64,000 bases of DNA, from IMG/VR virus record IMGVR_UViG_3300037067_008333, positions 1 to 64,000 of that record; one strand, 5' to 3'. The notes under the pieces are model-generated. The model saw only the letters and a program-made list of their open reading frames with translations. It made no database searches and was not told where the DNA came from. Origin of the DNA: a virus. Lineage: Duplodnaviria; Caudoviricetes. This document shows, piece by piece, positions 2-46,444 of the stretch (positions within the stretch are counted from its first letter, which is position 1; each line of letters begins with the position of its first letter). A program made the translations under genes and the position numbers.

Positions 2-1939
2 CGTCCGCGTAAGTTGAATATATTCAATCCGTTGATTAATACTCAACCGTCTTGGATGCCAGATAAGTTTCATGTTGGATCTCCTTTAGCAACAATGCCT
101 GAATCAGAATTACTTTTACCTGGTCAAGGCTACGAATCAGCACATGATGTTACGATGGATTTCCCTGTTTCGGCAGATATACTCGGTTTGAATCTTCCGG
201 ATACTGTACGGTCAATGTTGGGCCTTTATCCACATAATGCAAGTAAGTATGCCAGCAACAGTGATGTTGATAGAAAGAATAGAGAAATTCTTGCTGCAAG
301 CACAGTTTTTGATGCTAACCATAACATCAGTGGTATGCACGATGGTATTATCCGGTCTGGAAGATATAATGTTCTCCAGAAGATAAGGGGTCTTTCTGGT
401 AGCGATTTGGATAATTTTATTGGTCCTACAAATTCTGATGTTTCTGAAATGAACTGGTATTTGAAAGAAACAGGTGCTTCAGTTGGTGTTCTTTCTTATC
501 AGTTCAATGGCCAGGCTATTATGAATTATCCAGTTAAGTATTCTGCAGAGCGGTATTCTCAGGATATTGATACTGTTCGTAAGGCTCGGGTATATGCTCA
601 AAAAATGTATGAAAGTGGAGTGGGTTTTGGTTCTGAAGGGTATAGCCATATAGATCGGTTGAATATCTTGGCAAATGTGGCTCCATATTCAGATGAATAT
701 CGGACTGAAGAATTGCTGGTTCAGATGCAAATTAAGGCGGGTTATCCTCAAAAAGATCAACTCGAGAAGATTCGTAAGAAGAGAAAGGCTATCATGATGC
801 AACATGAGATGTATCCTTATCGATTTAAGGGTAATATTATGACTCCTGATAGTAAGTATAACAATCTTTCATTGAATGAGAATATAAAGGCTGCTGATCA
901 GTATTCTCTTCCAGAACGTATTGTGGGTGCAATGTGGGAAAATGTATCTCACATGAATACCCCGGTACATTCAAAATTTATGAATTACCGGACTCCACTT
1001 GAAGCTTATCAGCGCGGTTCTTTGTATGGACGTGATTTAAAAATGTGGTCGCATCCAATAGATCATTTCATGGATGCTTATGCGCGCGGGTTTATGTCTA
1101 AAACCGGTCCATTATCCGGAGGATGGGCAGGTGCAATGGCCGGTACATTAACGATGGGTCCTGGGTTTGGGACGGTGGTAGGTGCCGGTGTCGGTGCTGT
1201 TTATAGTGGTGTTCATGGAGTGTACCGGTCAATTACCGGGACAACATATATCCCGGGATCGGTTCGTGAGGCGCGTACCGTTAACCGTTATTTTGATAAG
1301 ATATCATATGTGAAAAATATGATGCTCTACAATGCAACAGGTGATGAGCGATATATGGAAGAGGCCCGCGGTACTATGACAGGCTTAAATCCTAGTGATC
1401 TTTCTCGCCAGGGTTGGTCGTATATGTATCGTGCTACACCTTCACAGGAACGTCCATATATTATTCCATTTATTACTGAAAGTGATCCAGAGGAACGTGA
1501 ACGGATTACAAAGTATGTTCCGGATGAAGTTTCTCAGATGTTGAGATCACGGTGGGCAGCTAGTGATACTCATGTTCGTAATACCCGTGTGTCTATGGGT
1601 AAAACAGATCCTATTCCTACTCCGGATTGGATTGGGTATAGTCCCGAAGTTCCACTTGAAGATGTGAAATTAAAATTTCTGGAAAATAAATCTATGGAAT
1701 ATCATGATTTTGGTTTAGGATTTCATGACCAGATGCAGCGGGTAAATGAATCTCCATGGCTTGATAGAATTGCGGTTGACATGAACGAACTTAGTAAACA
1801 GAGTGTGCCAATGATTAAGACTCAAAAGATCCATGAAATGAGAAGAACGTTGGAAGTAGCTATGAGGTCGCTGGGCTTGCAGGCTCAGATATCTATTACA
1901 CCAAGTGCGTTGAATACGGTAACGGTGGTAAATAACTAA
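2..1939 (+). CDS. Large virion-associated protein, 5'-truncated (possible tape-measure or ejection-type protein)
   Basis: The frame is open from base 2, so the track's TTG start at 14 is probably not the true start. It has a Gly/Ala-rich hydrophobic segment GGWAGAMAGTLTMGPGFGTVVGAGVGAVYSG (about 1118-1210). Its stop overlaps the next start (TAATG). Confidence 0.5.
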   Translation, partial: RPRKLNIFNPLINTQPSWMPDKFHVGSPLATMPESELLLPGQGYESAHDVTMDFPVSADILGLNLPDTVRSMLGLYPHNASKYASNSDVDRKNREILAASTVFDANHNISGMHDGIIRSGRYNVLQKIRGLSGSDLDNFIGPTNSDVSEMNWYLKETGASVGVLSYQFNGQAIMNYPVKYSAERYSQDIDTVRKARVYAQKMYESGVGFGSEGYSHIDRLNILANVAPYSDEYRTEELLVQMQIKAGYPQKDQLEKIRKKRKAIMMQHEMYPYRFKGNIMTPDSKYNNLSLNENIKAADQYSLPERIVGAMWENVSHMNTPVHSKFMNYRTPLEAYQRGSLYGRDLKMWSHPIDHFMDAYARGFMSKTGPLSGGWAGAMAGTLTMGPGFGTVVGAGVGAVYSGVHGVYRSITGTTYIPGSVREARTVNRYFDKISYVKNMMLYNATGDERYMEEARGTMTGLNPSDLSRQGWSYMYRATPSQERPYIIPFITESDPEERERITKYVPDEVSQMLRSRWAASDTHVRNTRVSMGKTDPIPTPDWIGYSPEVPLEDVKLKFLENKSMEYHDFGLGFHDQMQRVNESPWLDRIAVDMNELSKQSVPMIKTQKIHEMRRTLEVAMRSLGLQAQISITPSALNTVTVVNN

Positions 1940-4900
1940 TGTTCGGATACAAAGATTCCCGTGAGGATAAAAGTCATATATCACAACTGATTTCAGTTGG
2001 TGCTTTTTTACCTTTTGGAATCGGTATGATGAGATGGGTGAATTCATATGGGTATAAAACTAGAAAATTATTTGGTGTTGGTGTTTCTTATCCTACGAAT
2101 GTAAGGCAGGCTGCCAATGATGTATTCCAAGTAACCTCTTCTATGTTTACTCGGGATCCCGGAAGCCGGTTGTCTTCTCAGGATTTTGATCGTTATTTTC
2201 CAATGGTGAATCATTTACCAAACGAAATTGATGAAATAGAACGAGTTCGTGTTTTAATTGAAAAATATGAAAAAGAAGTTACGTCGATTCAGAATAATAT
2301 TCGTGATACCATTGATAAGATTTCTTCTAACATAGAATATCGAGTAAAGAAATTTAAAGAGATGGGATTAACAGAAAAGGAATATGTTGAACAGAATAAA
2401 TATCGTGTTGAAGTTTTCACGCAGTTCAAGGAGAGATTGGAATCCTATAAAAAAATGGATGTTGTGGAAGCTATTCAGGATCGTGTGCGGAAGAAATATC
2501 CTATTGCCAATTTTACACAACTTAACTTTCAGAATCTTAATGTTCTCGATGAATTTAAAGATGCTTTATTAGAAGGTATTGGAGATACGCGCAATACATT
2601 GAATACACTAAAACTTACCACAAGAGAGGTAGAAGTGTTTGATACCAATGTGGTGAATAAGTTCAAATCTATTGAAGATAATCTCATATTTGCGTATCGT
2701 ACAGATATATATACCAGGCCAATTGAACAGTTGACCACCTTGGAAGGTACTTCAGTTGATGTTGCTTCTTTATTGAAAAATTTTCCTGTTCTGGATGGTA
2801 GTATGAAAATGGATGGTCGTTATTTCCTGGAAAGGTTATGCGGTGATAAGTACGATTTCGTGAAATCTGCGTTGGATACAAGTGGTATACCATCATCAGC
2901 AGATACGGCTTTGCGGGATGTTCAGCGTTTGAAAAATCTTCTCCCGGAAGAGTTTGGTGGTCAGATCCATAGACTTTTCAAAGGTTTTGAAAAATTTGTG
3001 AAGAGCGGCAAGATTTCAGATGTTCAGATTTCATATAGGAATGTTTTTAATGCCAAAGAGATCATGTTTAAGGTACTTACCAAAGGACCTAAAGCCGGAG
3101 GAAATATAGGTGAATTCACATTTAGTTTGCTTGTTCCACATGAAGGTAGGTTGGGAAGCGGTATTCCTTATTTAACAGAGAATGTCATTGCTAATCAGGT
3201 CAAGGCAATTACTGATAATATCGATAGTATCGTGAATGGTTCTCTTCTTATGGAACGTCGAGAAGTTAATCAGAAATATATCAATATGCTGCAGCGCAAA
3301 GCTCTTCGGATGATTCCTGAAACTACGAGTCCTATTGAGAGTTTGAAATTGGCTTCTACTTCGGCCGGTAATATTATTTCATATACGAATATGGCTGGAT
3401 TAACTGAGAAGAAACTGAAAGATGCTTTTATGGAGATACACAAGTTTAAAGGATCTCGGATAGTGCATTTTATCGATGTTGGATTTGGTGACATCAAGCG
3501 TGGTCAGGAAACTGAGAGCATTGTGAAGGATATTGCTATTATTACTCAGGAACTTCGGGATGATGGAAGTATTAATATTCGGAGCGCTTGGCACGTTAAG
3601 GCAAGAGAATATGAGAAAGTGAATACTCTTTTCAGTGCTGATTTTGCTAGGAATGTTGGTTTTGAGAACTTGGAAGAAACCATGAAGTTTCTTAATATTA
3701 AGGATTTTGGTAGTATGACTGAGGAAGATCTTGTCCGGTTGCTCAATCACACTGTTGGAACTAATGGTACGATTGTTGGTAAAGCATTGCGGTTGAATAC
3801 GGCTAATGTGAAGGGTGATATCTATCGGTTAAAACAGTTGGCTAATAAGTACAAAGGTAAAGGTGTGAGCGATCTTCTCTATGCTTTGGATAACCGTATT
3901 GTTGATATGCAGCCGATGATGAGTTTGCAACTTACAGAGTTTCCTCCGGATCTTACTCCGGCCGGAAAGGGTATCGAAAGTATGGCGACGCGAATCAATA
4001 ATCTTCTGGGTTGGTTGAAGAAAAATGATGATAAGACCTATCATCAGGCATTGAATTACGTTAACTCTGTTGAACGCCGTATCTTTAATTTGAAAGGTCC
4101 TCTTACACCACGTCTTCGTCGGAAACTTATTGCCGCACATCGTTCGAAATATGATGTAACTTACACCGGTTTATATACGACATTGTTATCTAATTTCAGA
4201 TATAAAGATATAAATTCATTCAAAGATTTTATGGATTATATCAAATCACCTATTCCTGGATTTGAAGATAAGCAACTGATGTCACGGATATCTTCCAGCC
4301 AGGCGTTTGCTGGTAAAGTTAATGAGTTGCGTCCAGAGCAGATATTCCCCTTTGTTGAACTTGGATCACCATATACGAATAAGATGTATCAAGCATATAG
4401 TTCGGTACGAACTGATTATAAATTATCTAAACCTCTTCCAATTGTAACGTCTGGTGGATATCAATCATCTACGTTTGTTCCGGTTATCTCTGCTTGGGAT
4501 CCAGAAGTGAGTGAAGGTGGTGTTTGGGCAAATAAGAAATTCATCAAGAGTCAACATATATATGAGCATCGTCAGGTATTCTTAGTTGATGAGTTTCAGA
4601 ATATGGTTGATGGCATGAATAACGGTCATGTGATTAAGGCTACACCTGATGGTACGCCACACTGTATTGGTTATAGTGATGGAAAGCGGGTATTCTTGAG
4701 TGGAACTTCCGATGTTGAAATTGTGGATAAACCTATAGAGAGAGATCCATTTACGGGTAAAAGGGTCTTAATTGTCGAGGAAAAGGTACCAATTCATTAC
4801 GGTCAGAAGATTGGATTTTCAGCGACTGGTGCTGGTCTTGGATTAACGGATATGTTGGAAGATAATCTTCGTTGGGGTTTTTCTTATTCACCAGATGCTT

Positions 4901-7900
4901 TTAAGCGTAACGATTATGTTGCTGTTATTAATAATCTTTTGGGTAAGATAGATGCTTTTGTAGCTACGCGGCCCGATGCTATTTCTAAGGTTGTAGAAAG
5001 TGTGAATAAACATCTCACGTTTGAAGGAAAGCCAATCGTGACTCCAAAGCAGGTTGGTAGATACCTTGTTTTGGAGAGGAACTTGGGAGTTATAAATCCC
5101 GAAAATATCAATGAGAATACCATTCGTCATTTTCAAAATAAACTCTTTACAGTTTTAAAGGAGATTGGATCTACTCAGGCTCGTTTCATCGGTAATTACG
5201 ATTATATGCGCCGTCTTGCTAAGAAATCGGGTAAATATAAAGGTAATGTGGAGTGGTATGATCAGACTGTTCGGGCTGTTAAGGCAGCTAAAACAGGATC
5301 TCTTATGTCGTTTTTTAAGGATATGTCTGATACTGGCATCCTCACGCTTCAGGAATGGTTGCGGACTGGTAACTACAGTGATGAAGAACGGAAGATGTTT
5401 ATTGATGCTATAACAAAAGGTGATACTGAAATTGTTAACCGGCTTTGGGATAATCATGATCTTGTGAATCTTCTTGATGTTGATTTCTATGGGCCAGGTA
5501 AACCGCGGTTCCATGCTACTATTAATTTTAGTGAATCTGCATGGTTCTCTAGTACGTTACCATCCTGGGCTACTCGTAGTGGTATGGTGAAACTCAGTAA
5601 CCGACATATGGCGCTTTTGAAAAATCATCCTGGAGCCCAAAAGGGTTATTTTGAAGATGTTGTACGAGTTCTTAATGAACAGTCTGCCAATGTGGTTGGT
5701 AAAGGGTCTTATATTCTTAATATTGCTACACAAAAGGAATTTCAACCACATGGTTTTAATATTGGAGCATATATTGATGAGCTTGAAAAACGAGTAGATA
5801 GTGATGCTGAGAAAATAGCTTGGAAGAAATTCACTTTGGGTCAGTCACCTGAGTTATCTCAATTTTATGGAGATAATGTCATAGAATATCAGGGGCGGTA
5901 TTATACCGATGAACAATTCAGAAGTAAGTTTCCTGGAATTGATCCTGAATCTCTTCCCGAAACTAGTCGGGTGGATATTTCTCGTAGGATTCGTTCTCGC
6001 GAGAATGTAGAGTTTTTGGATATTCTCAATAAAAAAGGTGAAGGTTATTTTAATCTGAAAGGTAAAGCTGTTTTCGTGAATGTAAGTGGTAAATATCGTC
6101 CACAATTTAATAATTTACAATATTTTAAATCGGATTATGCAGTTCATCCTTTGGAGAATGTAAAACATGAACGGGGCAAGTTTGTGGTAATTTCAGAAGA
6201 AGCTATGACGCTGCAGAATATTGCTTTGAATCGGAATGATCCTTCAATGTTACCTGGTCATATCCAGCAACGGTGGGATGTCCTTATGAACCGTGTTATG
6301 AAAGAATCTCATGTAGCTTATGTTCCTGGTGTGAAGTCCCATGTTATGTTTGGAGAAGAATATGTTTTGGATCAGTTTGGTAGTCCTATGGTTGAATATA
6401 CCAAATCAACAACACTTCGCCAGGAATTACTCATTAATAAATCATATATGAAACAGCATCCTGATGCTTTTAGTAAGTCATTGGATGCCATGAGTGCCGA
6501 TGATCTTCATTTTGTTGAACAATATCATCGAAATTATAAAAGTGTGTTGGGTGGTGTTATTGGTGAACATCCATCTATGAAGGCCGCATCAATGGCTGAT
6601 GCTCGTAAGGCTTTTGAGACAAGTGCAGGTGTTACGTTGGATAAGTTCTTTGATATGTTGAAGAATACCCCAAATGGACTGTCTCAGGATCCTGAATTAA
6701 GAAAGTTATATTCGACAGCTGTGGATTATGGGTTAGTTGGACTGAAAGGTTTTATGGAAAAGCAACCTATAGCGACTACTGATAGTGTTGCTGGTAGTTA
6801 TGTGCTTGCTCGCAATGTGAAAATGCCGCGGTCAAAGAGTGGTGTTCAGGTAATTGGTCTTGTAAGTCGGGTGGCTGGTATGAAGATCCATATTGACCAA
6901 GACGGTGACTGGATAGATACTGTCATGACTGCTGAAGGTTGGCGCGGTATGATGGAATATAGTGGTCGGAAAACAGTATCGGAAACAGATGCTTTGCAGT
7001 ATCTTGGCACACATCTTCTTGAACACGGTGAGTTACCAGGATCAATTTCGAAAGATGAAGCAAGTGTTTTATTCTTCAATAATAGAATGAATGCTGTGAC
7101 CGCACTACCTATATCTTCAGCTATGCCTGTTATTGGTAAACAGGCTCGTCAAAATTTAAGTTTCATCTTTGATAAGGATGCGGCAAAAGAGGCATTTGAA
7201 CGGTCCCGTATGATTAAAGAGGGTGCTCCAAGGACATCTCGTATCATTTTTGCAGCATCTGATATGCTTCGTCAATTAGGTAAAGATATTCCGATTGAGG
7301 CTCAGCGTTCTTTATTTGACACATTAGGATCTCTTGCAGAATGGGGTCTTTCCCAGAAACGTGCCAGAGAGTTTCATAATGTTGTATTGTTGGATGATAT
7401 GTTTAGTAATATCCATGTTCCGGGGGGTGTGATAGACTTTGAACGAAAGATATTAGAAGCTAAGTCTGGAAAAGTTAATGGATTAATCGGTAAAGAAATA
7501 GAGAATCTACTTATTGATGCACCTCGGGAATATCATGGTTTCATTGAATCGAACGATCTTAAGAATCCATTGAGTAATCTTGCTTTGATATCATCAGTAG
7601 CGCGCAAATTTCCTGGATACGTGAAGTATGGTAGCCCTGATTATATTATTAATCATGGCATGCATGGATATATGGGAGATTTATATAAGCGAAATATTGC
7701 TGGGCAAATGATGGAAGACTATCCTACGGCTTTTCAGATAGGTGGTCCATTCAGGACTCCAGAAGAAGATTTTGGTAAGAATTTCAAGAGGGCTGTAAGA
7801 AATGTTGGTGGTCAAAAGGCGGTTGAGACCTTTATGACTGGTGGTAAGATGTTAGCTGCAGCCGGCGCTGCGTATTTGCTATTGAATATATTTAAACCTG

Positions 7901-8163
7901 ATCAGTCTGCATATCTTGGTCATATGCCGGGAAAGGGTGGTGAGTACTATGATTGGAATTTCACTAAACCTGAAATGGATTGGGCGCAGCTTATGCACAC
8001 TCCATTTGAGGATACTTTTGGGCCTGCTCCGGTTCATTTACGTCTTTATAATCCAGCGTATATGGATAATGGATTCAGGCGTCGCCGCCGCGACCAATTA
8101 CCATACCCTGAAGTCAGAAGGTTACAGGCAGCTCCCATAGATAGAAACGTGGTTGAATTTTAA
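1939..8163 (+). CDS. 2074-aa protein: candidate single-polypeptide two-barrel (DPBB) RNA polymerase with a degenerate DEDDh exonuclease domain
   Basis: Beta-like motifs: ISAWDPEVSEGGVWANKK (W853, E859) and EEKVPIHYGQK (K957). Beta'-like motifs: FMEKQP (K1608) and HIDQDGD (D1653-D1657, nt 6895-6909). Exonuclease-like motifs at D513, D627 and H734/D739. The ORF is certain; the function is inferred from motifs. Confidence 0.6.
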   Translation: MFGYKDSREDKSHISQLISVGAFLPFGIGMMRWVNSYGYKTRKLFGVGVSYPTNVRQAANDVFQVTSSMFTRDPGSRLSSQDFDRYFPMVNHLPNEIDEIERVRVLIEKYEKEVTSIQNNIRDTIDKISSNIEYRVKKFKEMGLTEKEYVEQNKYRVEVFTQFKERLESYKKMDVVEAIQDRVRKKYPIANFTQLNFQNLNVLDEFKDALLEGIGDTRNTLNTLKLTTREVEVFDTNVVNKFKSIEDNLIFAYRTDIYTRPIEQLTTLEGTSVDVASLLKNFPVLDGSMKMDGRYFLERLCGDKYDFVKSALDTSGIPSSADTALRDVQRLKNLLPEEFGGQIHRLFKGFEKFVKSGKISDVQISYRNVFNAKEIMFKVLTKGPKAGGNIGEFTFSLLVPHEGRLGSGIPYLTENVIANQVKAITDNIDSIVNGSLLMERREVNQKYINMLQRKALRMIPETTSPIESLKLASTSAGNIISYTNMAGLTEKKLKDAFMEIHKFKGSRIVHFIDVGFGDIKRGQETESIVKDIAIITQELRDDGSINIRSAWHVKAREYEKVNTLFSADFARNVGFENLEETMKFLNIKDFGSMTEEDLVRLLNHTVGTNGTIVGKALRLNTANVKGDIYRLKQLANKYKGKGVSDLLYALDNRIVDMQPMMSLQLTEFPPDLTPAGKGIESMATRINNLLGWLKKNDDKTYHQALNYVNSVERRIFNLKGPLTPRLRRKLIAAHRSKYDVTYTGLYTTLLSNFRYKDINSFKDFMDYIKSPIPGFEDKQLMSRISSSQAFAGKVNELRPEQIFPFVELGSPYTNKMYQAYSSVRTDYKLSKPLPIVTSGGYQSSTFVPVISAWDPEVSEGGVWANKKFIKSQHIYEHRQVFLVDEFQNMVDGMNNGHVIKATPDGTPHCIGYSDGKRVFLSGTSDVEIVDKPIERDPFTGKRVLIVEEKVPIHYGQKIGFSATGAGLGLTDMLEDNLRWGFSYSPDAFKRNDYVAVINNLLGKIDAFVATRPDAISKVVESVNKHLTFEGKPIVTPKQVGRYLVLERNLGVINPENINENTIRHFQNKLFTVLKEIGSTQARFIGNYDYMRRLAKKSGKYKGNVEWYDQTVRAVKAAKTGSLMSFFKDMSDTGILTLQEWLRTGNYSDEERKMFIDAITKGDTEIVNRLWDNHDLVNLLDVDFYGPGKPRFHATINFSESAWFSSTLPSWATRSGMVKLSNRHMALLKNHPGAQKGYFEDVVRVLNEQSANVVGKGSYILNIATQKEFQPHGFNIGAYIDELEKRVDSDAEKIAWKKFTLGQSPELSQFYGDNVIEYQGRYYTDEQFRSKFPGIDPESLPETSRVDISRRIRSRENVEFLDILNKKGEGYFNLKGKAVFVNVSGKYRPQFNNLQYFKSDYAVHPLENVKHERGKFVVISEEAMTLQNIALNRNDPSMLPGHIQQRWDVLMNRVMKESHVAYVPGVKSHVMFGEEYVLDQFGSPMVEYTKSTTLRQELLINKSYMKQHPDAFSKSLDAMSADDLHFVEQYHRNYKSVLGGVIGEHPSMKAASMADARKAFETSAGVTLDKFFDMLKNTPNGLSQDPELRKLYSTAVDYGLVGLKGFMEKQPIATTDSVAGSYVLARNVKMPRSKSGVQVIGLVSRVAGMKIHIDQDGDWIDTVMTAEGWRGMMEYSGRKTVSETDALQYLGTHLLEHGELPGSISKDEASVLFFNNRMNAVTALPISSAMPVIGKQARQNLSFIFDKDAAKEAFERSRMIKEGAPRTSRIIFAASDMLRQLGKDIPIEAQRSLFDTLGSLAEWGLSQKRAREFHNVVLLDDMFSNIHVPGGVIDFERKILEAKSGKVNGLIGKEIENLLIDAPREYHGFIESNDLKNPLSNLALISSVARKFPGYVKYGSPDYIINHGMHGYMGDLYKRNIAGQMMEDYPTAFQIGGPFRTPEEDFGKNFKRAVRNVGGQKAVETFMTGGKMLAAAGAAYLLLNIFKPDQSAYLGHMPGKGGEYYDWNFTKPEMDWAQLMHTPFEDTFGPAPVHLRLYNPAYMDNGFRRRRRDQLPYPEVRRLQAAPIDRNVVEF

Positions 8164-8187: not shown

Positions 8188-8373
8188 ATGCCTTATTCAA
8201 TAAATATTACCATTCGCGGAAGTAAAGATCCCAAAAAGATTGCGGATTATATTGCACAACTTATTGAAAATGCTACTGGTCAAAAGGTAAATATTTATCT
8301 TCATGATAGAAATGTGTTAAATCAACGAAAGACTGAAGAACTTCAAACCATAAATAGGAAACTACTTAAATGA
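8188..8373 (+). CDS. Small hypothetical protein (61 aa)
   Basis: ATG at 8188; the track extends it to a TTG at 8170 that lies inside the promoter. It fills the gap between two giant ORFs and has an ATGA overlap with the next gene. Confidence 0.6.
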   Translation: MPYSINITIRGSKDPKKIADYIAQLIENATGQKVNIYLHDRNVLNQRKTEELQTINRKLLK

Positions 8374-11300
8374 GTGAATTAGATAGAACATATCTTAACT
8401 CCGGGATATCAAATAAATTAATTAATGCAACCGTTACTAATATTGTAGATGGTGATACCATTGATGTTAGGTTGGATACGGGTGAAATAAGGCGTGTTCG
8501 TTTTGGCGGAGGTGTGAATGCTCCCGAAATGAGTACACCCGAAGGTTTAGTATCTAAAGCTTGGGTTGAAAAAAATATACCTATTGGTAGTACTACTTCC
8601 TTACTAGATTTTGCTGATGATAGTATTAGTTCAAGTGATTGTGATCCATATGGTAGATGGCCGTATCCTGTTGTTATGTCTGATGGAAAGATCGCCGATG
8701 TTGAACTAGTTAAGAATGGATTGGCAAATATTGACTATCTTAATAGTGGATTTCGTTCAACCGAATTAATTAATAAGAAGGCTATGCGGGATCTTTATTA
8801 TGGGATATATAAAGACAAGTCTATAGTTACAGCCACGGAAGTATCCCAAGTTCCATTAGAAAAGAAAATATTAGACACATGTGATATTTTAAAAATGGCT
8901 CAAGAAAAAGGATGGATAGATGAGAGTGGTATGAAGTTACCAGGGGCTTGTAAAATTGGTGTGGTATGGCTTCCAATTCCTCCATCTCACATTTGTGTTT
9001 CTGAAGTAAACGAGAATCGATCTATTAATACTATTAGAACTCCCGGTGATCCTAAAATTAAGACCGGTAGACAGGATATTCGCATAGAACTTGAGATGTT
9101 TTTTCCATCCATTCATGAGGTGAATACTAAACTTCGTCCATTACTTGCTCAGTTTATTCGGTCTCCATTTTTACCGTTAGAAAATGAACATATTCGTAAT
9201 CTGATTTATCCAGATGTTATGTGGAGTGAACCAACTCGTGTTACCAGAGAACGCGGACAAAATGGTATTTTAGATGCACATGTATATGAACGATATGCTG
9301 ATAAAGATATGACAAAGGGTGTTTTTACTCATGCGAATGAAAAATTTCAGCGCAAAGTATCTGATGAATTTACTAGGATCAGGGATTCATATTTTAATGA
9401 GCTTCGTAATCTTGGTGAAAATATCAAGAAAGAGACAAATGCAACAACTATAAAGTCTCTGGAGAAAAGACGTTTGGAAGTTATTAAATCTATAAAAGAA
9501 TTAAGAGTTGAAGATATAGCGCTACGGATGATTCGGGATGAAAAACCAGCTAATATATATGATGATACTCAATTGGCTGTTGTTTTGAGGGCCTTGGCTA
9601 TTACTACCGTTCCAGGATATCCCGAAACACTCCAGTGTAACATAACATTATCTGTTTTTAATTTTATACCTTATTCTGAAGATTTTTCATTTATTCAAGA
9701 TATAGATAGTGCCATTAAACAAATTGAATATTTTTCTGGAAGGGAAAATCTTAAATTTCCTGAAGATGTTCGTGAATATTTTAATTACACTGAATATCAG
9801 CGTCCAGAGTTAAAGGTTACAAAGAACCTGTCTGAATCTGAGCCATTTTTAGCGTATATTATGCCAATGCTTACCGGTGGTATTTTTTCCGCAGATCGTA
9901 CAGTAACAATGAAAACTGTTGATGGGAAGGATGAGGAAAAAACGACTGGATTCTTATTTGTTTCTCCTGAAAATTATCTTAGAAGTGTTGCTGATGTTGG
10001 TGAGTTTAAACGTTTTAATTTCGAATATGAAATATCTGAGATTTCTCTTGAAGAGAAAGAGATGTTTGATCTTTTACAGGATAGTATTCAGATGGAAACT
10101 TATCGATATTTTACCGATTTTTTACAGGGTTATATTGATAAAGATATTTTTTCTATATATGGAGAACGTCTTGGTGTAGCTTGGCGGACTATTGTTAGGG
10201 TTATGCTTTTCGAGACAATCAAAGATAAAGTCAAGTATACTCTTGATGCTATGAAAAATTATCAAGAAGAAATGATCGAACTTCCATTTCCAATTAAGGA
10301 GAAAGGTAAACCACCCATTATTGATGCTAATAAACCATATCGGGTTGCTGATTTTCTGGAACGGATCAAGAACGGTCTTCCATATGCTAATCAGATGTTG
10401 GCTAACTTAGGTGAAGTTCTGAGAGCCAAATCTTTGGAAACTTATGGTTATCAGAATATATATAAATTTAGTTTTACTGAAGATGCTGACACTGTAGTTA
10501 CTGGTATTACTGCTGCTTATGAAACTAAACTTGCTCCTATTTCTTTATTAAGTCATACACTTCCAACGTATCAATATATGGGAAAACACGATTGGGGTGT
10601 GAAACTTAATATTCAAACATGTAATGAGTCTTTAAAACGTATTCTACGTTCATTGTCAAGTAAAGCCGCTTATGGTCGTGTAATTAGAAATAGGTCTAAT
10701 AAAGGATGGTGGGTCAACAAGTCCAATAGTTTGTATTTGAATCCCGATACTTTTGGTAATGGAATATTTAAACTTCTTGGTGTGAATCATGTTTTGGTTG
10801 AAGATGTTGTTTATGAGGATGTAAAAGATAAGCCTGGTTGGTGGAATATTTCACTTTCTCTTGTTCAATCTGATCTTGATCTTTTCTTGTATGAGTCATT
10901 ATTGCCGATTAATTTTTTTGACAAAACCGTGGTAAATGATTTAAAGGTAGCAATGAAAAAGTCATATACTGGTAAACAAGATGAGATGTATACTAAGATC
11001 GCAGAAAAGTATCCTTATTTGGCTAAGTATATTTTTGACCAGATGCAGTCGTATGTTTATCGTCAAACATATAATGTTTTTTATGGTGGAAGTAGTGCGA
11101 CCCCAGAATTACCTCATACGACATCTACACCGTCTGGTCAGATTACCAGTTATTTTGGGTTTCGCACTAATCCCGTTACCGGAGAAAATCAAATTCATAA
11201 TGGTATCGATCTTACGGGAAATGTTAATACTCCCATTCCGTGTCTGGTTGATGGTATTGTAACTTTTGCTGGAGAGGCCGATATTAACGGTAACTTGGTA

Positions 11301-14300
11301 AAAGTAAAGCATTCTAATGGATATGAGACACGTTATGCTCACTTGAATTCTGTTTCTGTTCAGAATGGTGATCGTATAAAGAAAGGGCAGATTGTTGGTT
11401 ATATGGGAAATACGGGTCAGGTTACCGGTACTCATCTTCATTATGGTGTATATAAAGATGGTAATGCTGTTGATCCATTATTACAGCAAGATTTTGATCC
11501 ATATAATTTTCCATTTGTTAGTAATGTGGTTGCTAAAAGTAGAGGGTATATTGTTACAGACCAGGATGTTCAGGATATTGTTCGCGGGGGATTCAATAAG
11601 AATACTTTCAAACAGAAACTTATAGAGAAATTTAATGAGTTACCACCGACTATCAGTGCAACGAAAGTGGCTATGAATAATTTGGGTAATGTAGTTACTA
11701 CCGCTAAAGATTTTATTCGTGGTGGTTCTCAGCAAATGGCTTCAAATTCTGCTAATAAAGTTTTAGGAAAAGATTCAAATGCCATGAATAAAGTTGATAC
11801 GAAACTTCTTTATAATGGAGATGTTTTAAGTCAGCAAACATTCATGAATAGACTTGATGATAAATTTAAACTCATATCAACTATAAATGTTCCATTGTCA
11901 CAGGTTAACGAATTAATGGAAGCTAATTTTTTGCAGACATTGGCTATTCGGTATCTGTTAGTAGCTCCAAAGGAAGCATTGAATTTATTGGTAGATAACG
12001 GTAGTAAATATGCAATTAAAGATGTTATGCCTCAATGGAATGTCAACACTGTTGCCGGGGACACAACATATGATTTGTATAGTAATTATTTCGATTTGAA
12101 TCTTCCATCGTATAAAAGTGGGATTCTTTCCACTCCTGCTGATTTTTTCTATCGTCGTTTTGATAAGGTATTTTCTTTTGATGTTCTTGATGAACGTATT
12201 AGAAGAACAAAAGAAAATTATATGAATGCTTGGAAATTCCAATTAGTTGATGGATTTGCGATGTATGAAAAGCTTTCCAAAATACAGACGTATCCATTTG
12301 CTATGGGACCGGAAGATATGCGTATGGAAGAACATCATCTAAAGACTATGAAAAAGCGTATGGATGATATTGCATATGAGATCAGTAATATTCAATTTGT
12401 TGAAAAACAGTGGGATGCCAATGAGAAGATCCCGGCGCTGCGGGTTGAATATAATCATCTTAAGCGAAGTTATGACGAAGGCCAGACCGCACTTAGTCAG
12501 CAAATTAATACATTTAAAGGTAAAAATAAAAATTCCGAAAGTAATAAAGATCAGTATGAGAAAATAATTAATCTTGCTAAGACTGTTCATTCTCAATATG
12601 GTGAAGATGTTAAAAGGATGTCTATTGATAATAAAATGTCTTATGCTGCAGAACAGCGTATTTCGGTAATTCGACAGGCTATGGGGTTGGCTACTTGTTT
12701 ACGTTTAGCTGAAATCCAGAATGAACTTGAATTACAAGAGAGATCACTGAAGGTAAAAAGTGAAAGTGGTCAGCTTGGCCAGGGTATACCTCCTCAATAT
12801 AATCGTCTTTATCTGATTCGTCAGGATCTTATTTCTCAGGTAATGATGTTTTCTGAAATGCCCACACAAGATCTTTATGGTGTGGTGACACCATGGTCTT
12901 TGGAGGAATCTCAAGATATAATTGATAGGATCAGGGATGCATATAATGTATATAAAGCTAAAGACAAAACACACTCAATGGAACGTGCTTATCCTACATT
13001 AAAATTATATTTTATAGAAGAAGATTCAAAACAGTGGGGTCAATTTGATGATTATTATATGTATAACGCAATTGAGGATATCGAGGTTATTCATAGTAAA
13101 AATGCCGCAAGTTTTGTAGCAAATATAACAATCAGTAATATTTCACGGAATCTTTCAGATCCATATGCTATTTATAATGTTGAATCATCTACAAGTCAAC
13201 AGACGAGTGATGAACAGGCTTTATTTACCATGTATCTGAGGGAAGGTGTGACTATTATGATTAAGGCTGGATTCGATAATAATCCAGCTAATCTTAATAC
13301 AATTTTTATGGGAAAGATCATTTCTTGTTCTGCAGGTGATCGTGTAAGCATAGTAGCACAAAGTTTTGGTGCTGAACTTTTGGAACCTATTAATCAAGGT
13401 GTTGGTATTAAGCGTGGTTATTGTAGCCCATGTCGTACACATGGTGATATTGTTTTGTGGGCGGCTAATACATTGAGTGGTATGGAACATTTCGGTAGTC
13501 CTAATATGTATGAACGTCTTGGTTTTATTGATACTCATGGTGCTACGCCGTATTACGCAGCTCCTAAATGGCGGGCTTGGGATTTCTTAAAGAGCATGCA
13601 CCCAATTCTTGATGTTTATTTCAGGTTTGCTGTTTATGATCCGCGGTTTGAAAATGTTTATCTTCCATATTCAAAGCTTTGTATGTCTCCTATGAGCCAA
13701 GTGTTGGCTGACATGCTTGTTAATGCCGTTAAAGCTCCAGGAAAGGCTATTTTGAAAACTATTGCCGGGGTATCAGCATTAACGATTGGTGTTATAGGAT
13801 TAACATGTTTGGCATGTGCTTTACCGCTTGGTTTAAGCGCTGGTGCTGTTTTAAGTACTGTTGGTGGATTTTTGGTACCTGGAATTACAATTGGAACCGT
13901 TGTTAAATTGGGAACGTGTTTATTATTATCATATGCTTTTGGTACATTATTGGAAGGTTTGGGCCGGAATGATAACATGTTATTATTTTGGCATTCTACA
14001 TTTGATTGGGTTATCCCAGATGATACTTCATTGTGGGATCTTCTTCAAGAAGTTTCGCTTTATCATGATGATTTTATTACCACGGTTCTTCCATATAATG
14101 AATTTATTCCAGGTCAAGTTCGACAAACTTTGTATGTAGGCCCGCGGGATGGAGTATATAAGTATACTGATGTTTTTGACAATAAAGAGACATTTGATAG
14201 ATTTGTTAAAGATATTCAGTTTAAACGTAAGTTTATGGGCATGGTGATGGATCAGAGTGAACGTAAGAGAATCCAGAAGGAGTATGATTCTGTTGTAAAG

Positions 14301-15824
14301 GACGCAAACAAACTGAAAGCTAAGCAACAAAAGAATGGATTGGATTATTATGAGTTGGTACGTTATCATGATTTGTTAGCTCAAATTCGTGAGTACGAAA
14401 ATCTACGTCAGTATATTGCTCGGTATGAAGGTGTTCCTGAATTTGCTAGTGCATCTCAAAATGCTTTAGAAGTGGCAATGTATCAGCAGAGGTTGAATAA
14501 TATAAAGGATCCTAAAATTCGGAAAGAAGTACTTGCTGCTTTTAATGAGTTATCTCAGGTTGGTGCAAAAGAAGGCACGCCACAATTTAAAAAAACCATG
14601 AATGAACGCTTTTCTCGGGAAATCGGTAAAACTATAGATGAAATTGAAGAAGAGTATAGGGATAGTATGGGTGAGCAGAAATATGATATGACGCGATTGG
14701 ATTATATTAGTGCTTTTGTTGATTATAAATATGGTCATTTTATGACAAAAGATGAAGAGGATTTGAGGTATATACCATTTGAAACTAGCGGTATTATGTT
14801 TGCTATTAATAATCCCGAGGATTTGATGCATGAAGTTAATGGTAAAAAGTATTGTTCGTATCCCGGTTATATGAATGTTGTGAACTACTATTATATTGAT
14901 AGTTTCTCTCATATCATAAGTAATGATATCCGGGCTAGTGCTGAGGATGTTTATAATCATGTTATTGTCAAATATCCTCCTGATCCCACATTAAAACAGA
15001 CTACTGATCTTATGTCAAAAGAGTTTTGGGCAGATGATAATATTCGTGGTGGTAATGTTCGAACATACGTAAGTGAACAAAGGAACATAGATCCTTTGTC
15101 TGTTCCATTCTTACCTGGAGATTTTGAACAGTGGCTTGAATTTCGCCAGAAGGTTGGATCTAAAAAATTATATGGTAAATTACCACGAGTCTATCAGGTT
15201 GGATACAATATTCTGGCTAATCATATGCGCCCAATGTACCGTGGTTCTATTACAGTTATTGGCATGCCTTATGTTAAGCCGTATGATATTATCTTTATAA
15301 ACGATTATTATACGAATATGTGGGGGCCGATAGAAGTTGAGACGGTGAAACATAGATTCAATTCAGAAGGTTTTACTACTGAAATAGTTCCAAATGCTGT
15401 TATCTCATATATGCATCCTGGTAAGGTGGCTGAACTTGCTTTTATGCAGGGTTTGCAGCTTCCATTAATTGGACTTGAAATGATTAATTGGAGTATTGTA
15501 AAAACTATTGGTACTGTAAGTGGAGTTGCTGGTACAGCTGCTGGTATTGGTACAGCTGCTGGTGCTACGAGTGCCGCTCTTCCATGGGTTATTGGATTGG
15601 GTGGTTTTGGTGGAGCTCTTGGTCTTTGTTTATCGATGAGTATGTGGAACATGGGTGTAGGTAAGTTCCTGGGCCGCGATATCATAAATGTATGCGGATT
15701 ATGGTTAAATAGCCGGCCACTTACTGCTGGAATGGAAGGTGCATATAAAGATAATGTACAAGTACACATGCTTGATAATATTCAGAATCTTGTTGACTTT
15801 GATGTCATGATTCAGGGTGTATAA
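8370..15824 (+). CDS. Giant tail-tip/baseplate-hub protein with N-terminal thermonuclease (SNase) and internal M23 peptidase domains
   Basis: SNase motifs IVDGDTIDV, RRVRFGGGVNAPE and DPYGR (about 8420-8730). M23 zinc motifs HNGID (H943/D947) and HLH (H1022/H1024) at about 11142-11480. Hub-like segments IMIKAGFD...IFMGKI...VSIVAQ and YRGSITVIGMPYVKPYDIIFI...VETVKHRF. Two Gly/Ala hydrophobic stretches. Confidence 0.8.
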   Translation: MSELDRTYLNSGISNKLINATVTNIVDGDTIDVRLDTGEIRRVRFGGGVNAPEMSTPEGLVSKAWVEKNIPIGSTTSLLDFADDSISSSDCDPYGRWPYPVVMSDGKIADVELVKNGLANIDYLNSGFRSTELINKKAMRDLYYGIYKDKSIVTATEVSQVPLEKKILDTCDILKMAQEKGWIDESGMKLPGACKIGVVWLPIPPSHICVSEVNENRSINTIRTPGDPKIKTGRQDIRIELEMFFPSIHEVNTKLRPLLAQFIRSPFLPLENEHIRNLIYPDVMWSEPTRVTRERGQNGILDAHVYERYADKDMTKGVFTHANEKFQRKVSDEFTRIRDSYFNELRNLGENIKKETNATTIKSLEKRRLEVIKSIKELRVEDIALRMIRDEKPANIYDDTQLAVVLRALAITTVPGYPETLQCNITLSVFNFIPYSEDFSFIQDIDSAIKQIEYFSGRENLKFPEDVREYFNYTEYQRPELKVTKNLSESEPFLAYIMPMLTGGIFSADRTVTMKTVDGKDEEKTTGFLFVSPENYLRSVADVGEFKRFNFEYEISEISLEEKEMFDLLQDSIQMETYRYFTDFLQGYIDKDIFSIYGERLGVAWRTIVRVMLFETIKDKVKYTLDAMKNYQEEMIELPFPIKEKGKPPIIDANKPYRVADFLERIKNGLPYANQMLANLGEVLRAKSLETYGYQNIYKFSFTEDADTVVTGITAAYETKLAPISLLSHTLPTYQYMGKHDWGVKLNIQTCNESLKRILRSLSSKAAYGRVIRNRSNKGWWVNKSNSLYLNPDTFGNGIFKLLGVNHVLVEDVVYEDVKDKPGWWNISLSLVQSDLDLFLYESLLPINFFDKTVVNDLKVAMKKSYTGKQDEMYTKIAEKYPYLAKYIFDQMQSYVYRQTYNVFYGGSSATPELPHTTSTPSGQITSYFGFRTNPVTGENQIHNGIDLTGNVNTPIPCLVDGIVTFAGEADINGNLVKVKHSNGYETRYAHLNSVSVQNGDRIKKGQIVGYMGNTGQVTGTHLHYGVYKDGNAVDPLLQQDFDPYNFPFVSNVVAKSRGYIVTDQDVQDIVRGGFNKNTFKQKLIEKFNELPPTISATKVAMNNLGNVVTTAKDFIRGGSQQMASNSANKVLGKDSNAMNKVDTKLLYNGDVLSQQTFMNRLDDKFKLISTINVPLSQVNELMEANFLQTLAIRYLLVAPKEALNLLVDNGSKYAIKDVMPQWNVNTVAGDTTYDLYSNYFDLNLPSYKSGILSTPADFFYRRFDKVFSFDVLDERIRRTKENYMNAWKFQLVDGFAMYEKLSKIQTYPFAMGPEDMRMEEHHLKTMKKRMDDIAYEISNIQFVEKQWDANEKIPALRVEYNHLKRSYDEGQTALSQQINTFKGKNKNSESNKDQYEKIINLAKTVHSQYGEDVKRMSIDNKMSYAAEQRISVIRQAMGLATCLRLAEIQNELELQERSLKVKSESGQLGQGIPPQYNRLYLIRQDLISQVMMFSEMPTQDLYGVVTPWSLEESQDIIDRIRDAYNVYKAKDKTHSMERAYPTLKLYFIEEDSKQWGQFDDYYMYNAIEDIEVIHSKNAASFVANITISNISRNLSDPYAIYNVESSTSQQTSDEQALFTMYLREGVTIMIKAGFDNNPANLNTIFMGKIISCSAGDRVSIVAQSFGAELLEPINQGVGIKRGYCSPCRTHGDIVLWAANTLSGMEHFGSPNMYERLGFIDTHGATPYYAAPKWRAWDFLKSMHPILDVYFRFAVYDPRFENVYLPYSKLCMSPMSQVLADMLVNAVKAPGKAILKTIAGVSALTIGVIGLTCLACALPLGLSAGAVLSTVGGFLVPGITIGTVVKLGTCLLLSYAFGTLLEGLGRNDNMLLFWHSTFDWVIPDDTSLWDLLQEVSLYHDDFITTVLPYNEFIPGQVRQTLYVGPRDGVYKYTDVFDNKETFDRFVKDIQFKRKFMGMVMDQSERKRIQKEYDSVVKDANKLKAKQQKNGLDYYELVRYHDLLAQIREYENLRQYIARYEGVPEFASASQNALEVAMYQQRLNNIKDPKIRKEVLAAFNELSQVGAKEGTPQFKKTMNERFSREIGKTIDEIEEEYRDSMGEQKYDMTRLDYISAFVDYKYGHFMTKDEEDLRYIPFETSGIMFAINNPEDLMHEVNGKKYCSYPGYMNVVNYYYIDSFSHIISNDIRASAEDVYNHVIVKYPPDPTLKQTTDLMSKEFWADDNIRGGNVRTYVSEQRNIDPLSVPFLPGDFEQWLEFRQKVGSKKLYGKLPRVYQVGYNILANHMRPMYRGSITVIGMPYVKPYDIIFINDYYTNMWGPIEVETVKHRFNSEGFTTEIVPNAVISYMHPGKVAELAFMQGLQLPLIGLEMINWSIVKTIGTVSGVAGTAAGIGTAAGATSAALPWVIGLGGFGGALGLCLSMSMWNMGVGKFLGRDIINVCGLWLNSRPLTAGMEGAYKDNVQVHMLDNIQNLVDFDVMIQGV

Positions 15825-16963: not shown

Positions 16964-17094
16964 CTGTAAAGGTAAATAAGAAATTGAGAGTAAAATCGTC
17001 AGATAAAGTTAAACGTATAGATGGAGTATACAATCGCGCAAAAGAAAAAGACGTATTGCGGCGGTTAAAAAATGGAGATTATAATGGATACTAA
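16960..17094 (+). CDS. Small basic protein (44 aa), not in the ORF track
   Basis: Translation MTVKVNKKLRVKSSDKVKRIDGVYNRAKEKDVLRRLKNGDYNGY. GGAGG at 16950-16954, ATGA overlap with the upstream stop, and it fills an otherwise empty gap. Confidence 0.55.
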   Translation: MTVKVNKKLRVKSSDKVKRIDGVYNRAKEKDVLRRLKNGDYNGY

Positions 17095-18274
17095 TACATG
17101 GTTAACGGAATCATTAGATAGATTATCAACAAATAGTAAGTTTAAGGCTACGTCTGCGGGGGCCATTGCGCGTAATATGCTTGAAAGTTGGAATAGTATA
17201 ACTAATAGTGTTGCGTTTACATTGGATTTGAAGATTCTTGATGCTATTGTTACAACTGCAGCTGGAGATAATCTTGATAATATAGGTAAATTAGTAAATG
17301 TGGAACGGTTTGGGACTCAATATGCTTTAGGTTTAGTTAAGATTGGTATTGATTCTACTTTAGGGAAAACACTTGATGATTTGAAGGATCTAATCGAAGA
17401 TGCTACTGGAACTCGGCCCGAAGATATTATATTGGCGGCTGGCACTGAAATATCAAATGAAAATGGAAGTATTCTTTATCATACAGTGAGTGATGTGACT
17501 TTAATTGATGGTGATGTTTATGTTAATGCTTTGTGTTATCTGGAAGGCGTTTCTGGAAATATATCATCTGGTGTATTGAATAAATTCTCAAGTTTTTCTA
17601 ATTCACTTTTCCCTATTTATAACTACTTGATTGTAACAAATCCTAATCCAATAGATGCCGGATCAGATAAAGAGAGTGACGATAATTATAGGTATAGGAT
17701 TATTAACGCATTCACAGCCAGCGCTAAAGCTAATGAGATGTCAATAAGGCTTGCGGCACTTTCAGTGCCAGGTGTTGCTGATGTTATAATGAAGAGATAT
17801 GCGTATGGGATCGGTACAACTGGCGTGTTTGTTATATCTGAATCACCTATAGTTTCTCAAGGTATTGTAGATGCTGTATCTGTGGCAACTAATATGGTTT
17901 GTTCTTCAGGCGAGAAGACTATTGCTTCAGCTCCAAATTATAAAGCTATATATTCATCTATTGTTTTAGAATTTAAGTCAGATACTCCTGTGAGTGTTAA
18001 AGATTCAGTTTGTGTACAAGTTCGTAGTAATATTGTTTCTTATATAAATAATTTAAAGGTGAATGAAGAATTCGTATTACATCAACTTGAACAGGTTATT
18101 TTGAGTACATCTAATCGTATATACGATTATGTTATTCAAAAAATGGGTATTGGTGATTATAATTTTGATACGGGATTGATTGATTATTACCAAGATGTTG
18201 TTCCTGGGAATCAGGTTGTTGTTGATATGGATAAATGGGTGACTAATTCGAAACTTGTTGATGTCTGTTATTAG
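17084..18274 (+). CDS. Baseplate J-like protein (P2 gpJ / Mu gp47 family)
   Basis: TAAGDNLDNIGKLVNVER, AGTEIS, GNISSGVLNK, GSDKESDDNYRYRI and ALSVPGVADV motifs. ATG at 17084 follows GGAG; an alternative start exists at 17072. Confidence 0.85.
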   Translation: MDTNTWLTESLDRLSTNSKFKATSAGAIARNMLESWNSITNSVAFTLDLKILDAIVTTAAGDNLDNIGKLVNVERFGTQYALGLVKIGIDSTLGKTLDDLKDLIEDATGTRPEDIILAAGTEISNENGSILYHTVSDVTLIDGDVYVNALCYLEGVSGNISSGVLNKFSSFSNSLFPIYNYLIVTNPNPIDAGSDKESDDNYRYRIINAFTASAKANEMSIRLAALSVPGVADVIMKRYAYGIGTTGVFVISESPIVSQGIVDAVSVATNMVCSSGEKTIASAPNYKAIYSSIVLEFKSDTPVSVKDSVCVQVRSNIVSYINNLKVNEEFVLHQLEQVILSTSNRIYDYVIQKMGIGDYNFDTGLIDYYQDVVPGNQVVVDMDKWVTNSKLVDVCY

Positions 18275-44348: not shown

Positions 44349-44701
44349 AGAATACCCTTTTGTTTTCTTTTAATGTAATCTTCAGTTTGCATGTAATCTC
44401 GACTATAAGTATATGTATTAACTTGTGGAGTTTTTACAAGTAATTTAATTTTAACTGGACTGAAAATTGTTGTTTGTTGAATAAATAAAAATAACGTTTC
44501 CCATTCTTTATCATCCTCGACATATTTGAAATTCGATGTTGATATTATGCGGCCGGCACCCCATTCTATCTTTTCAATGTATTTAGCTCCATCGTATACA
44601 TTTAAAAGCGCTGCATAGTCTTTTCCACAATCACTAAGGATACCCATACATAAAAATCGTGGATCATTGGTGGCACATGGTTTATCTGTAACTAATTGCA
44701 T
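44345..44701 (-). CDS. Hypothetical protein
   Basis: 118 aa; overlaps both neighbours (TAATG and ATGA type). Confidence 0.6.
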   Translation of the reverse strand: MQLVTDKPCATNDPRFLCMGILSDCGKDYAALLNVYDGAKYIEKIEWGAGRIISTSNFKYVEDDKEWETLFLFIQQTTIFSPVKIKLLVKTPQVNTYTYSRDYMQTEDYIKRKQKGIL

Positions 44702-45435: not shown

Positions 45436-45443
45436 ATTTTCTC

Positions 45444-46415: not shown

Positions 46416-46444
46416 AATATCTCCTTATCTTTATGTCCTTTGTA

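Follow-up and report, generated by a model that had tools for sequence, protein, structure and literature searches.

The window analyzed here is a stretch of 64,000 nucleotides and covers the initial 64 kb of one phage contig, 87,924 bp in length (IMG/VR record IMGVR_UViG_3300037067_008333), for which the completeness given by CheckV is 43%. The contig starts inside an open reading frame (ORF), and 14 clustered tRNA genes are located at its other end. Three giant genes, termed A, B and C, lie at its beginning, with small genes between C and a baseplate gene. The middle giant gene, B, encodes the subject of this report, P0001, a protein of 2074 amino acids (aa) that occupies the tape-measure position and appears to contain an RNA polymerase (RNAP)-like module.

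2–1939, plus strand: giant protein A (P0003), of which only the C-terminal 645 aa are present, since the contig starts inside the gene; homologue of the virion protein ORF145 of phage 0305phi8-36, with a Gly-zipper
1939–8163, plus strand: giant protein B (P0001), with 2074 aa, in the tape-measure slot and with a putative RNAP-like module; an ORF whose family was detected by exhaustive phmmer; gene order A-B-C-baseplate conserved
8370–15824, plus strand: giant protein C (P0002), 2484 aa, with a staphylococcal-nuclease-like N-terminus, an M23 peptidase and transmembrane (TM) segments; homologous to gp147 of 0305phi8-36, a gp27-like hub / tail lysin
17072–18274, plus strand: Baseplate J / wedge protein, matching phrog_6 at 6.5e-32 and, by tblastn, 0305phi8-36 ORF151; contractile-tail context

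An original prediction, made from the sequence alone, had read P0001 as a highly divergent single-chain RNAP injected by a contractile-tailed phage. The single ORF and all of the motifs quoted there, including DQDGD at nt 6895–6909, were recovered where that prediction had placed them. The contractile-tail setting was likewise borne out by the Baseplate_J/wedge genes downstream and by a gene order homologous to that of the Bacillus myovirus 0305phi8-36 (219 kb), the nearest named phage. The following features were distinguished within P0001.

4486–4539, plus strand: motif (i), aa 850–867, candidate strand like the "NFED" strand of the beta subunit; acidic residue 859 conserved; not significant against RpoB; low predicted local distance difference test (pLDDT) score
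4558–4791, plus strand: predicted barrel-sandwich hybrid domain, aa 874–951, like the RNAP beta flap / Rpb2 wall insert
4777–4833, plus strand: motif (ii), aa 947–965, with G-x-K957, resembling the beta "GDK...K" loop; A965 replaces the second basic residue
5707–6333, plus strand: aa 1257–1465, confidently modelled, weakly like the N-terminal clamp part of the largest RNAP subunit
6742–6948, plus strand: candidate beta'-type barrel (double-psi beta-barrel A, DPBB-A) segment, aa 1602–1670; strand-strand-strand-short helix predicted before the triad; pLDDT ~30; weak RNAP matches
6760–6768, plus strand: K1608-Q-P1610, the [RK]xP motif, with invariant P
6895–6909, plus strand: D1653-Q-D1655-G-D1657, candidate Mg-binding catalytic triad, with all three Asp invariant
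7174–7350, plus strand: predicted long helices, aa 1746–1804, with invariant K1760, E1801 and K1807; pLDDT 70–89
7801–8028, plus strand: most conserved C-terminal module (…LGHMPGxGGE…), shared with the same-slot proteins L031_B and L033_B and not with 0305phi8-36 ORF146

The family of P0001 was assembled from an exhaustive phmmer search with aa 800–1999 against 1.84 billion representatives, which returned eight relatives, mostly of 2100–2300 aa, and from pattern scans, which contributed three viral and eight metagenomic loci. This rare family consists, after deduplication, of about 11 full-length and four partial members, ~2000–2300 aa in size and 15–35% identical to P0001. Word-indexed homologue searches with the single sequence or a profile returned only the query itself, tblastn of P0001 against 50,697 phage records gave no match, and a scan of genome contigs found no relative. 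The whole protein and the family profile gave only chance-level matches to Pfam, PHROG and PDB sequences (coiled-coil-like families and a poxvirus DNA polymerase), and an ESM Atlas feature search with aa 1380–1830 returned only unrelated hypothetical proteins (scores ~0.83).

Protein A is homologous to 0305phi8-36 ORF145 (blastp, 1.6e-21) and protein C to gp147 (2e-12). In 0305phi8-36, a hub domain like that of T4 gp27 is present in gp147, and the role of tape measure was assigned to ORF146; both ORF145 and ORF146 were detected in virions by mass spectrometry (PMC2147016). P0001 is flanked by homologues of ORF145 and gp147, as is ORF146, and is therefore placed in the tape-measure slot, although no homology between P0001 and ORF146 was detectable. 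Every related contig keeps the order A – B – (~60-aa ORF) – C – 223 aa – 151 aa – Baseplate_J, and small genes of the size of tail chaperones are located upstream of A in the relatives. P0001 thus resembles a tape measure in its position, but in its AlphaFold2 (AF2) model aa 870–1600 form globular parts of mixed alpha/beta structure, not one long helix.

Conservation, both within the family and among distant proteins of the same slot, is highest in a beta'-type signature, in which an [RK]xP motif is followed after ~40 aa by DxDxD. In P0001 the two elements are contained in FMEKQP (aa 1605–1610) and HIDQDGD (aa 1651–1657); D.DGD occurs only once, in P0001, among all ORFs of at least 100 aa of the 88-kb contig. 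An alignment of eight sequences (16–27% identity to the first sequence) contains 26 invariant columns, among which are P1610, D1653, D1655 and D1657. None of the 12 family members with sequence at this site deviates in the Asp triad or in the Pro of [RK]xP, and [RK]xP is located 38–46 aa before DxDxD. The Asp triad thus does not vary, even though the residues between the Asp do (DQDGD, DMDGD, DSDGD, DTDGD, DADFD, DYDAD and DFDSD), and it is followed in the family by a hydrophobic strand and then, in most members, by Pro. For a protein of the size and composition of P0001, the chance expectation for a lone DxDxD is 0.45, so its mere presence there means little; the signal lies in the invariance. 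The R position of [RK]xP is occupied by K in 5 of the 12 members, including P0001.

Distant slot-B proteins were located through the better-conserved neighbouring gene A. The signature recurred in four of these proteins, as listed here together with two same-slot proteins in which it was not found.

L031_B, 2125 aa: KYP...DKDGD; recognisable member of the P0001 family
L033_B, 2167 aa: RDP...DIDGD; recognisable member of the P0001 family
L030_B, 3133 aa: RYPTF...(37 aa)...NVDFDGDKLFLTMP; otherwise not detectably similar to the P0001 family
L032_B, 4205 aa, of which the first 3329 were read: RHPVF...(37 aa)...KVDMDGDQLFL; otherwise not detectably similar to the P0001 family
L029_B, 2222 aa: no signature
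0305phi8-36 ORF146, 2537 aa: no signature

When the family and these four distant proteins are taken together, [RK]xP precedes the triad by 37–48 aa in 16 of 16 proteins, compared with 35 aa between R425 and D460 of Escherichia coli RpoC. The pairing of RxP with DxDGD, on which the original prediction had relied, is hence above chance. The C-terminal module of L030_B is common to ORF146 and L029_B, both of which are free of the signature, and a "tape-measure"-type protein can therefore have or lack it. Pfam gave no match for the distant, DFDGD-bearing L030_B. Two other assignments of the Asp triad, to an MltA-type "3D" lytic domain and to an EF-hand-type Ca loop, were rejected, owing to the lack of Pfam support and to unfitting spacing and flanks.

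The C-termini of the slot-B proteins comprise two unrelated conserved modules, and the RNAP-like signature was found with either. One, "...LGHMPGxGGE..." ending in F-E-F, is present in the window family (window 7801–8163), L031_B and L033_B, while the other, "G-[YF]-x-x-KVSAK", is present in ORF146, L029_B and L030_B. The LGHMPGxGGE module possibly serves in tail or hub attachment or in membrane contact. In one relative (L025), gene B is split in two: one ORF of 541 aa (L025:1804–3429) corresponds to the family's N-terminal portion (2.9e-13 with a hidden Markov model, HMM), and the other piece, a 1742-aa ORF (L025:3462–8690), begins ~450 residues into the family alignment.

The triad segment was further compared with known polymerases. 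A family HMM of aa 1595–1685, run against E. coli RpoB and RpoC and phi14:2 gp66, scored best on RpoC 444–468, i.e., the strand and NADFDGD (P=7e-4). The same HMM landed on DFDGD in P23-45 gp96 (P=0.008) and on ADTDGD in 0305phi8-36 orf99 (P=0.009). Nine such segments, compared with 24,736 Pfam models (E <= 10), matched a sole family, PF05183 RdRP (E=0.064, profile positions 429–484), which is the QDE-1 two-barrel family. The top match among 38,880 PHROGs was "RNA polymerase beta subunit" (E=0.046). In hhalign comparisons with a crAss RNAP profile, built from phi14:2 gp66 and eight crAss-like homologues, RxP through DxDxD were always paired, at P=0.09–0.46 with 12 sequences and 0.0095–0.038 with 16; the best result, for 16 segments against the crAss virion RNAP barrel, covered 55 columns (P=0.0095, Prob 4.3%). 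Long family regions gave Prob <=0.3% against this profile. Every one of these weak database signals points, if faintly, to two-barrel RNAPs, and none is strong enough alone.

The nature of the sole Pfam match raises the alternative of an active two-barrel polymerase which is not a DNA-dependent transcriptase of early genes, and which would instead be RNA-dependent or primer-making, in the manner of QDE-1, or produce another polymer. QDE-1 is active on both DNA and RNA templates (PMC9508822), and P0001 lacks the second of the beta-type basic residues. On the other hand, the characterised single-chain two-barrel virion RNAPs, phi14:2 gp66 and P23-45 gp96, both transcribe DNA, and the phage encodes its own DnaG-type primase-helicase. 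Such a template or product is considered very improbable.

The beta-like half of the proposed module is less well defined. Motif (i), ISAWDPEVSEGGVWANKK, spans aa 850–867, and the string EEKVPIHYGQK of motif (ii) spans aa 947–957. The E. coli strings with which they had been aligned proved to be real and correctly positioned (RpoB 804–821 and 1055–1065, with GDKMAGRHGNKGV at 1063–1075; RpoC NRAP at 424 and NADFDGD at 458). As matches to RpoB, the two motifs did not hold up: the gap-free identities amount to 2/18 for motif (i) and 4/11 for motif (ii), which alone are not above chance, and family HMMs of aa 840–975, 845–870 and 940–975 found nothing at the matching place in RpoB. Family HMMs of the beta-like region also found nothing in gp66 or gp96. 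Within the family, 9 of 10 members have an acidic residue at position 859, and each of the seven rows of alignment A4 has K or R at position 957; in three further full-length rows (alignment A2), the latter position is K in P0004 and P0006 and H in P0009. Most members carry a second basic residue (K or R) eight positions after 957. The original prediction had itself cautioned that K replaces R in RxP and that Ala replaces the second lysine. Both points are correct, the former substitution being common in the family and Ala965 being peculiar to P0001. A beta-like barrel at aa 850–970 is plausible but unproven.

In terms of structure, a single-sequence AF2 model of aa 800–1799 reached a pLDDT of 36, and a model of aa 800–1999 with a 14-row alignment reached a mean pLDDT of 58.6 (predicted template-modelling score, 0.38), with confident blocks at aa 879–949, 999–1059, 1229–1459, 1509–1599 and 1749–1929. 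In this model, aa 874–951 fold into a barrel-sandwich hybrid, which can be aligned with both the Rpb2 wall and the beta flap and lies between motifs (i) and (ii), in keeping with the sandwich-barrel insert proposed from the sequence. The layout matches that of RpoB, in which the flap is inserted between the NFED strand (804–821) and the GDK loop (1063–1075), although generic barrel-sandwich proteins (aminoacylase-3, NqrA/RnfC) fit aa 874–951 as well as RNAP flaps do. Further along the chain, aa 1257–1934 align in order with beta'/Rpb1/A', in a weak co-linear alignment to beta' 24–1344. The secondary-structure order around the triad (strand-strand-strand-helix before it, a hydrophobic strand after it) fits DPBB-A, in a part of the model that has low pLDDT. 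A 38-residue helix at aa 1746–1783 and a second helix at 1786–1804 (model residues 947–984 and 987–1005) may, judging from the model, correspond to the bridge helix.

Foldseek comparison of the AF2 model with PDB and BFVD gave nothing at E <= 0.001, and the top-ranking BFVD match was to a protein of an Acinetobacter jumbo phage, which is uncharacterised (E 0.08). The weak rows were rich in second-largest RNAP subunits (Pol I A135, Rpb2, plastid and E. coli beta, giant-virus beta), and RNAP chains accounted for 8 of the top 50 non-redundant PDB rows. A complex prediction for aa 830–1000 with aa 1570–1720 scored 0.27 (mark, 0.32), which says nothing either way. The distance from K957 to D1653 is 696 aa, compared with 737 aa in a virtual end-to-end fusion of E. 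coli beta and beta'.

Such weak matches leave room for a second alternative, in which DxDxD is a Ca2+ or Mg2+ site of a non-polymerase, either a structural cation site or part of another hydrolytic or transfer enzyme within an ejected tail protein, and the likeness to RNAP is convergent or coincidental. Acidic D-x-D-x-D loops bind Ca2+ in unrelated proteins too. The chance expectation of 0.45 given above, the absence of a significant profile or fold match to any RNAP, and the poor modelling of both barrel cores by AF2 are all in line with this explanation. It would nevertheless have to account for an [RK]xP motif at a distance of 37–48 aa in 16/16 proteins and for a strand pattern as in beta', gp66, gp96 and orf99. 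Moreover, the sole Pfam match and the top PHROG are both RNAP families, and the fold matches to beta and to beta', though weak, follow a co-linear order. We regard a non-polymerase metal site as improbable.

The favoured reading, to which we assign a probability of roughly 0.65, is that P0001 is a giant protein of the tape-measure slot, from a phage of the 0305phi8-36-like supergroup, with a very divergent single-chain two-barrel RNAP module. Of the injected, divergent RNAP originally proposed, the part that stands is the conserved beta'-type signature, together with the weak signals toward two-barrel RNAPs; the support sought in motifs (i) and (ii) does not. The beta-like part (~aa 850–970) would comprise the acidic strand, a flap/wall-like barrel-sandwich insert and the G-x-K loop, and the beta'-like part (~aa 1257–1930) a clamp-like region, the [RK]xP...DxDxD barrel (1602–1670) and the long helices. 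P0001 would be built into the virion, in the tail lumen, together with giant proteins A and C, judging only from its position. It would then be ejected along with the DNA, the three Asp would bind Mg2+, and the enzyme would transcribe the first phage genes, after which sigma-like factors of the phage would redirect the host polymerase. The phage thus probably injects its own transcription enzyme. A phage-encoded sigma factor had also been anticipated, and a sigma-like ORF was indeed found.

43665–44348, minus strand: sigma-like ORF, 227 aa; Sigma70_r4 at 3e-4, and 5.3e-6 in the genome search, just below the cut-off

The sigma-70 region-4-like helix-turn-helix of this ORF lies at window 43713–43841 (minus strand). 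A second sigma-70 region-4-like ORF, an 80-aa frame at G000:C1:67251–67361 (minus strand), scored above the Pfam cut-off.

Several observations weigh against the polymerase reading. Homology to any RNAP family is nowhere statistically solid, and the weak matches are largely driven by DxDGD, the very motif that prompted the search; the 12-sequence hhalign comparisons were not significant. The pLDDT is below 50 at aa 850–867, 950–990 and 1604–1695, i.e., in both putative barrel cores (~30 at the triad), and no double-psi barrel is seen. The strict beta motif G-x-K-x7-[KR]-G (cf. RpoB GDK...NKG) is present in only three members. P0001 itself departs from the family consensus three times, with K1608 for R, Ala965, and Ala for the post-triad Pro. 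No direct evidence places the P0001 family in virions. Finally, two proteins of the same slot, ORF146 and L029_B, do not carry the motif, which is therefore unneeded for the structural role of the slot.

Some of these observations would be equally expected if P0001 were mainly a tape measure or ejection scaffold, whose RNAP-derived module has decayed, is catalytically dead and is kept for folding or for DNA binding during ejection. P0001 occupies the slot of the 0305phi8-36 tape measure, in which proteins devoid of any DxDxD exist, and it alone has Ala965 where most members have K or R. The replaced R of [RK]xP and the missing post-triad Pro would fit decay as well, and phage sigma-like factors together with host RNAP could suffice for transcription. 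Yet P0001 retains an intact Asp triad, the KxP proline and K957, K1608 is a tolerated variant, shared by 5 of 12 members, and strict invariance of the Asp triad at 15–35% identity argues for metal-binding selection, P0001 included. A decayed module is accordingly judged unlikely, though less so than either of the alternatives discussed above.

Among known systems, the polymerase reading of P0001 finds a close counterpart in gp96 of the Thermus phage P23-45, a virion RNAP fused to the tape measure, relatives of which exist without the module (Chaban et al. 2024, PMC10770324). Both are giant proteins of the tail module that occupy the tape-measure position and contain a two-barrel-type signature (in gp96, RNP...DFDGD...LPKG), both have relatives without the module, and both are associated with an M23 peptidase and TM segments. 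In P23-45, however, the tail is that of a siphovirus, the module is N-terminal, and the peptidase and TM segments are part of the same chain, whereas the P0001 phage has a contractile tail, the module is in the C-terminal two-thirds, and the peptidase and TM segments belong to the neighbouring protein C. The barrel-to-barrel distance of ~700 aa in P0001 is also unlike gp96 and closer to the layout of a beta-beta' fusion. A second, non-virion RNAP, as in P23-45, was not found in the complete relative (G001). As for homology to gp96, family HMMs match only 16–20 residues at DFDGD, and the whole-family HMM matches nothing.

The crAss-like virion RNAP, phi14:2 gp66 (PDB 6VR4; bioRxiv 10.1101/2020.03.07.982082), is likewise a single chain of similar size (2180 versus 2074 aa), and P0001 is similarly encoded among giant virion proteins, beside a giant protein bearing a peptidase. 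The two share the pattern R-x-P-x-x-G ... DxDxD ... P, which underlies the 55-column hhalign result. In contrast, gp66 belongs to a podovirus and has DFDID and a 140-aa connector, while P0001 is from a myovirus and has DQDGD, with ~700 aa between the candidate barrels. P0001 and the gp66 family gave no tblastn or PHROG match, and their overall similarity is not significant.

In comparison with E. coli RpoB/RpoC, the order of elements in P0001 is the same (acidic strand, flap-like insert, G-x-K loop, clamp-like region, RxP...DxDGD, long helices). Unlike beta/beta', P0001 is a single chain with the flap reduced to ~80 aa, it contains no Zn-binding cysteines (only 2 Cys in all), and the second beta lysine is absent. 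None of the Pfam RNAP domains reached any threshold on P0001.

In 0305phi8-36, the counterpart in the slot, ORF146, lies similarly between the A and C homologues but has neither DxDxD nor detectable similarity to P0001. This phage does, however, encode a stand-alone PF05183 RNAP, orf99 (1.1e-20), which had been noted previously (PMC2147016). The orf99 protein, a QDE-1/RdRP-family RNAP, carries RSP...ADTDGD, like the signature of the P0001 family; it differs in being a separate 1246-aa gene product encoded outside the tail module, and no homology beyond the motif was detectable. Conversely, the complete 203-kb relative (G001) encodes a DxDxD-bearing slot-B protein (L005) and four sigma-region-4-like ORFs, and no PF05183 or PF00623 gene was found in its genome. 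The slot-B signature and the stand-alone RNAP are thus distributed in a complementary manner in these two genomes, which is a hint and not a rule. A broader proposal, offered tentatively and at odds well short of even, would be that across the 0305phi8-36-like, ~200-kb contractile-tailed phages the slot protein repeatedly carries a modular two-barrel virion RNAP or lacks it. This module would have the layout of a shrunken beta-beta' fusion and not that of the QDE-1/gp66/gp96 type with its short connector, represent an undescribed single-chain lineage delivered through a contractile tail, and trade places with an orf99-like RNAP.

To our knowledge, virion-delivered two-barrel RNAPs have been demonstrated in few lineages, namely, crAss-like podoviruses, P23-45-like siphoviruses and the multisubunit phiKZ/AR9 enzymes. 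A virion two-barrel RNAP joined to a tape measure is already known from one siphovirus lineage, and the P0001 family belongs to neither the gp96 nor the gp66 family; no paper describing it was found in the literature. If the family is active, the idea of a tape-measure-associated polymerase would extend to contractile-tailed giant phages, and the question would arise as to how a 230-kDa enzyme passes the tail tube. It would also constitute a new, extremely divergent branch of the RNAP superfamily, missed by standard annotation. The presence or absence of the signature, versus a stand-alone QDE-1-like gene, would then provide a natural experiment on the choice between an injected and an early-expressed polymerase, and D1653, D1655, D1657, K957 and P1610 would be the targets for mutagenesis.

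The neighbouring giant proteins show features of their own. Gene A has at least 139 homologues of ~2000 aa, many of them on contigs of 200–230 kb, and it is conserved far better than B (47–55% identity over the last 645 aa). In the A genes of relatives (L003:3–3413, L005:1437–9989, L009:2–4450), as many as two or three inteins containing LAGLIDADG endonucleases are inserted, at positions corresponding to P0003 residues ~224–230, 350 and 399, while the copy in the window is intein-free. It is unusual for a virion or tail protein to contain inteins, and their insertion points in A are thereby marked as functionally critical. Protein A was also considered as the missing beta-like half of the polymerase and was rejected, as an ORF145 homologue with a Gly-zipper and inteins and without RNAP signal. 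Protein C contains the staphylococcal-nuclease-like domain (phrog_452) at aa 18–121, the M23 peptidase at 942–1036 and TM helices at 1791–1862 and 2402–2425. As a homologue of gp147 (gp27-hub/lysin), it was rejected as the tape measure.

The minus strand of the contig encodes replication genes, including DnaG-DnaB, family B DNA polymerase (PolB), ribonucleotide reductase (RNR) and SNF2. A LAGLIDADG intein is present in each of two of these proteins.

Contig 68.4–71.6 kb (L001:4401–7586), minus strand: RNR large subunit, intein-bearing
Contig 78.4–81.9 kb (L002:2436–5939), minus strand: PolB, intein-bearing

An intein splicing domain was also detected in a glycosyltransferase at window 62337–63998. 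The latter gene is part of a long co-oriented island (window 44701–64000, minus strand) of glycosyltransferases, methyltransferases, radical SAM enzymes and an epimerase/dehydratase, which represents a phage-encoded sugar-modification pathway. The 14 tRNA genes at the end of the contig are likewise on the minus strand (L002:6629–11864; contig ~82.6–87.9 kb) and include a 90-nt tRNA-Ile(UAU) as well as paired isoacceptors for Gln, Gly, Ala and Pro.

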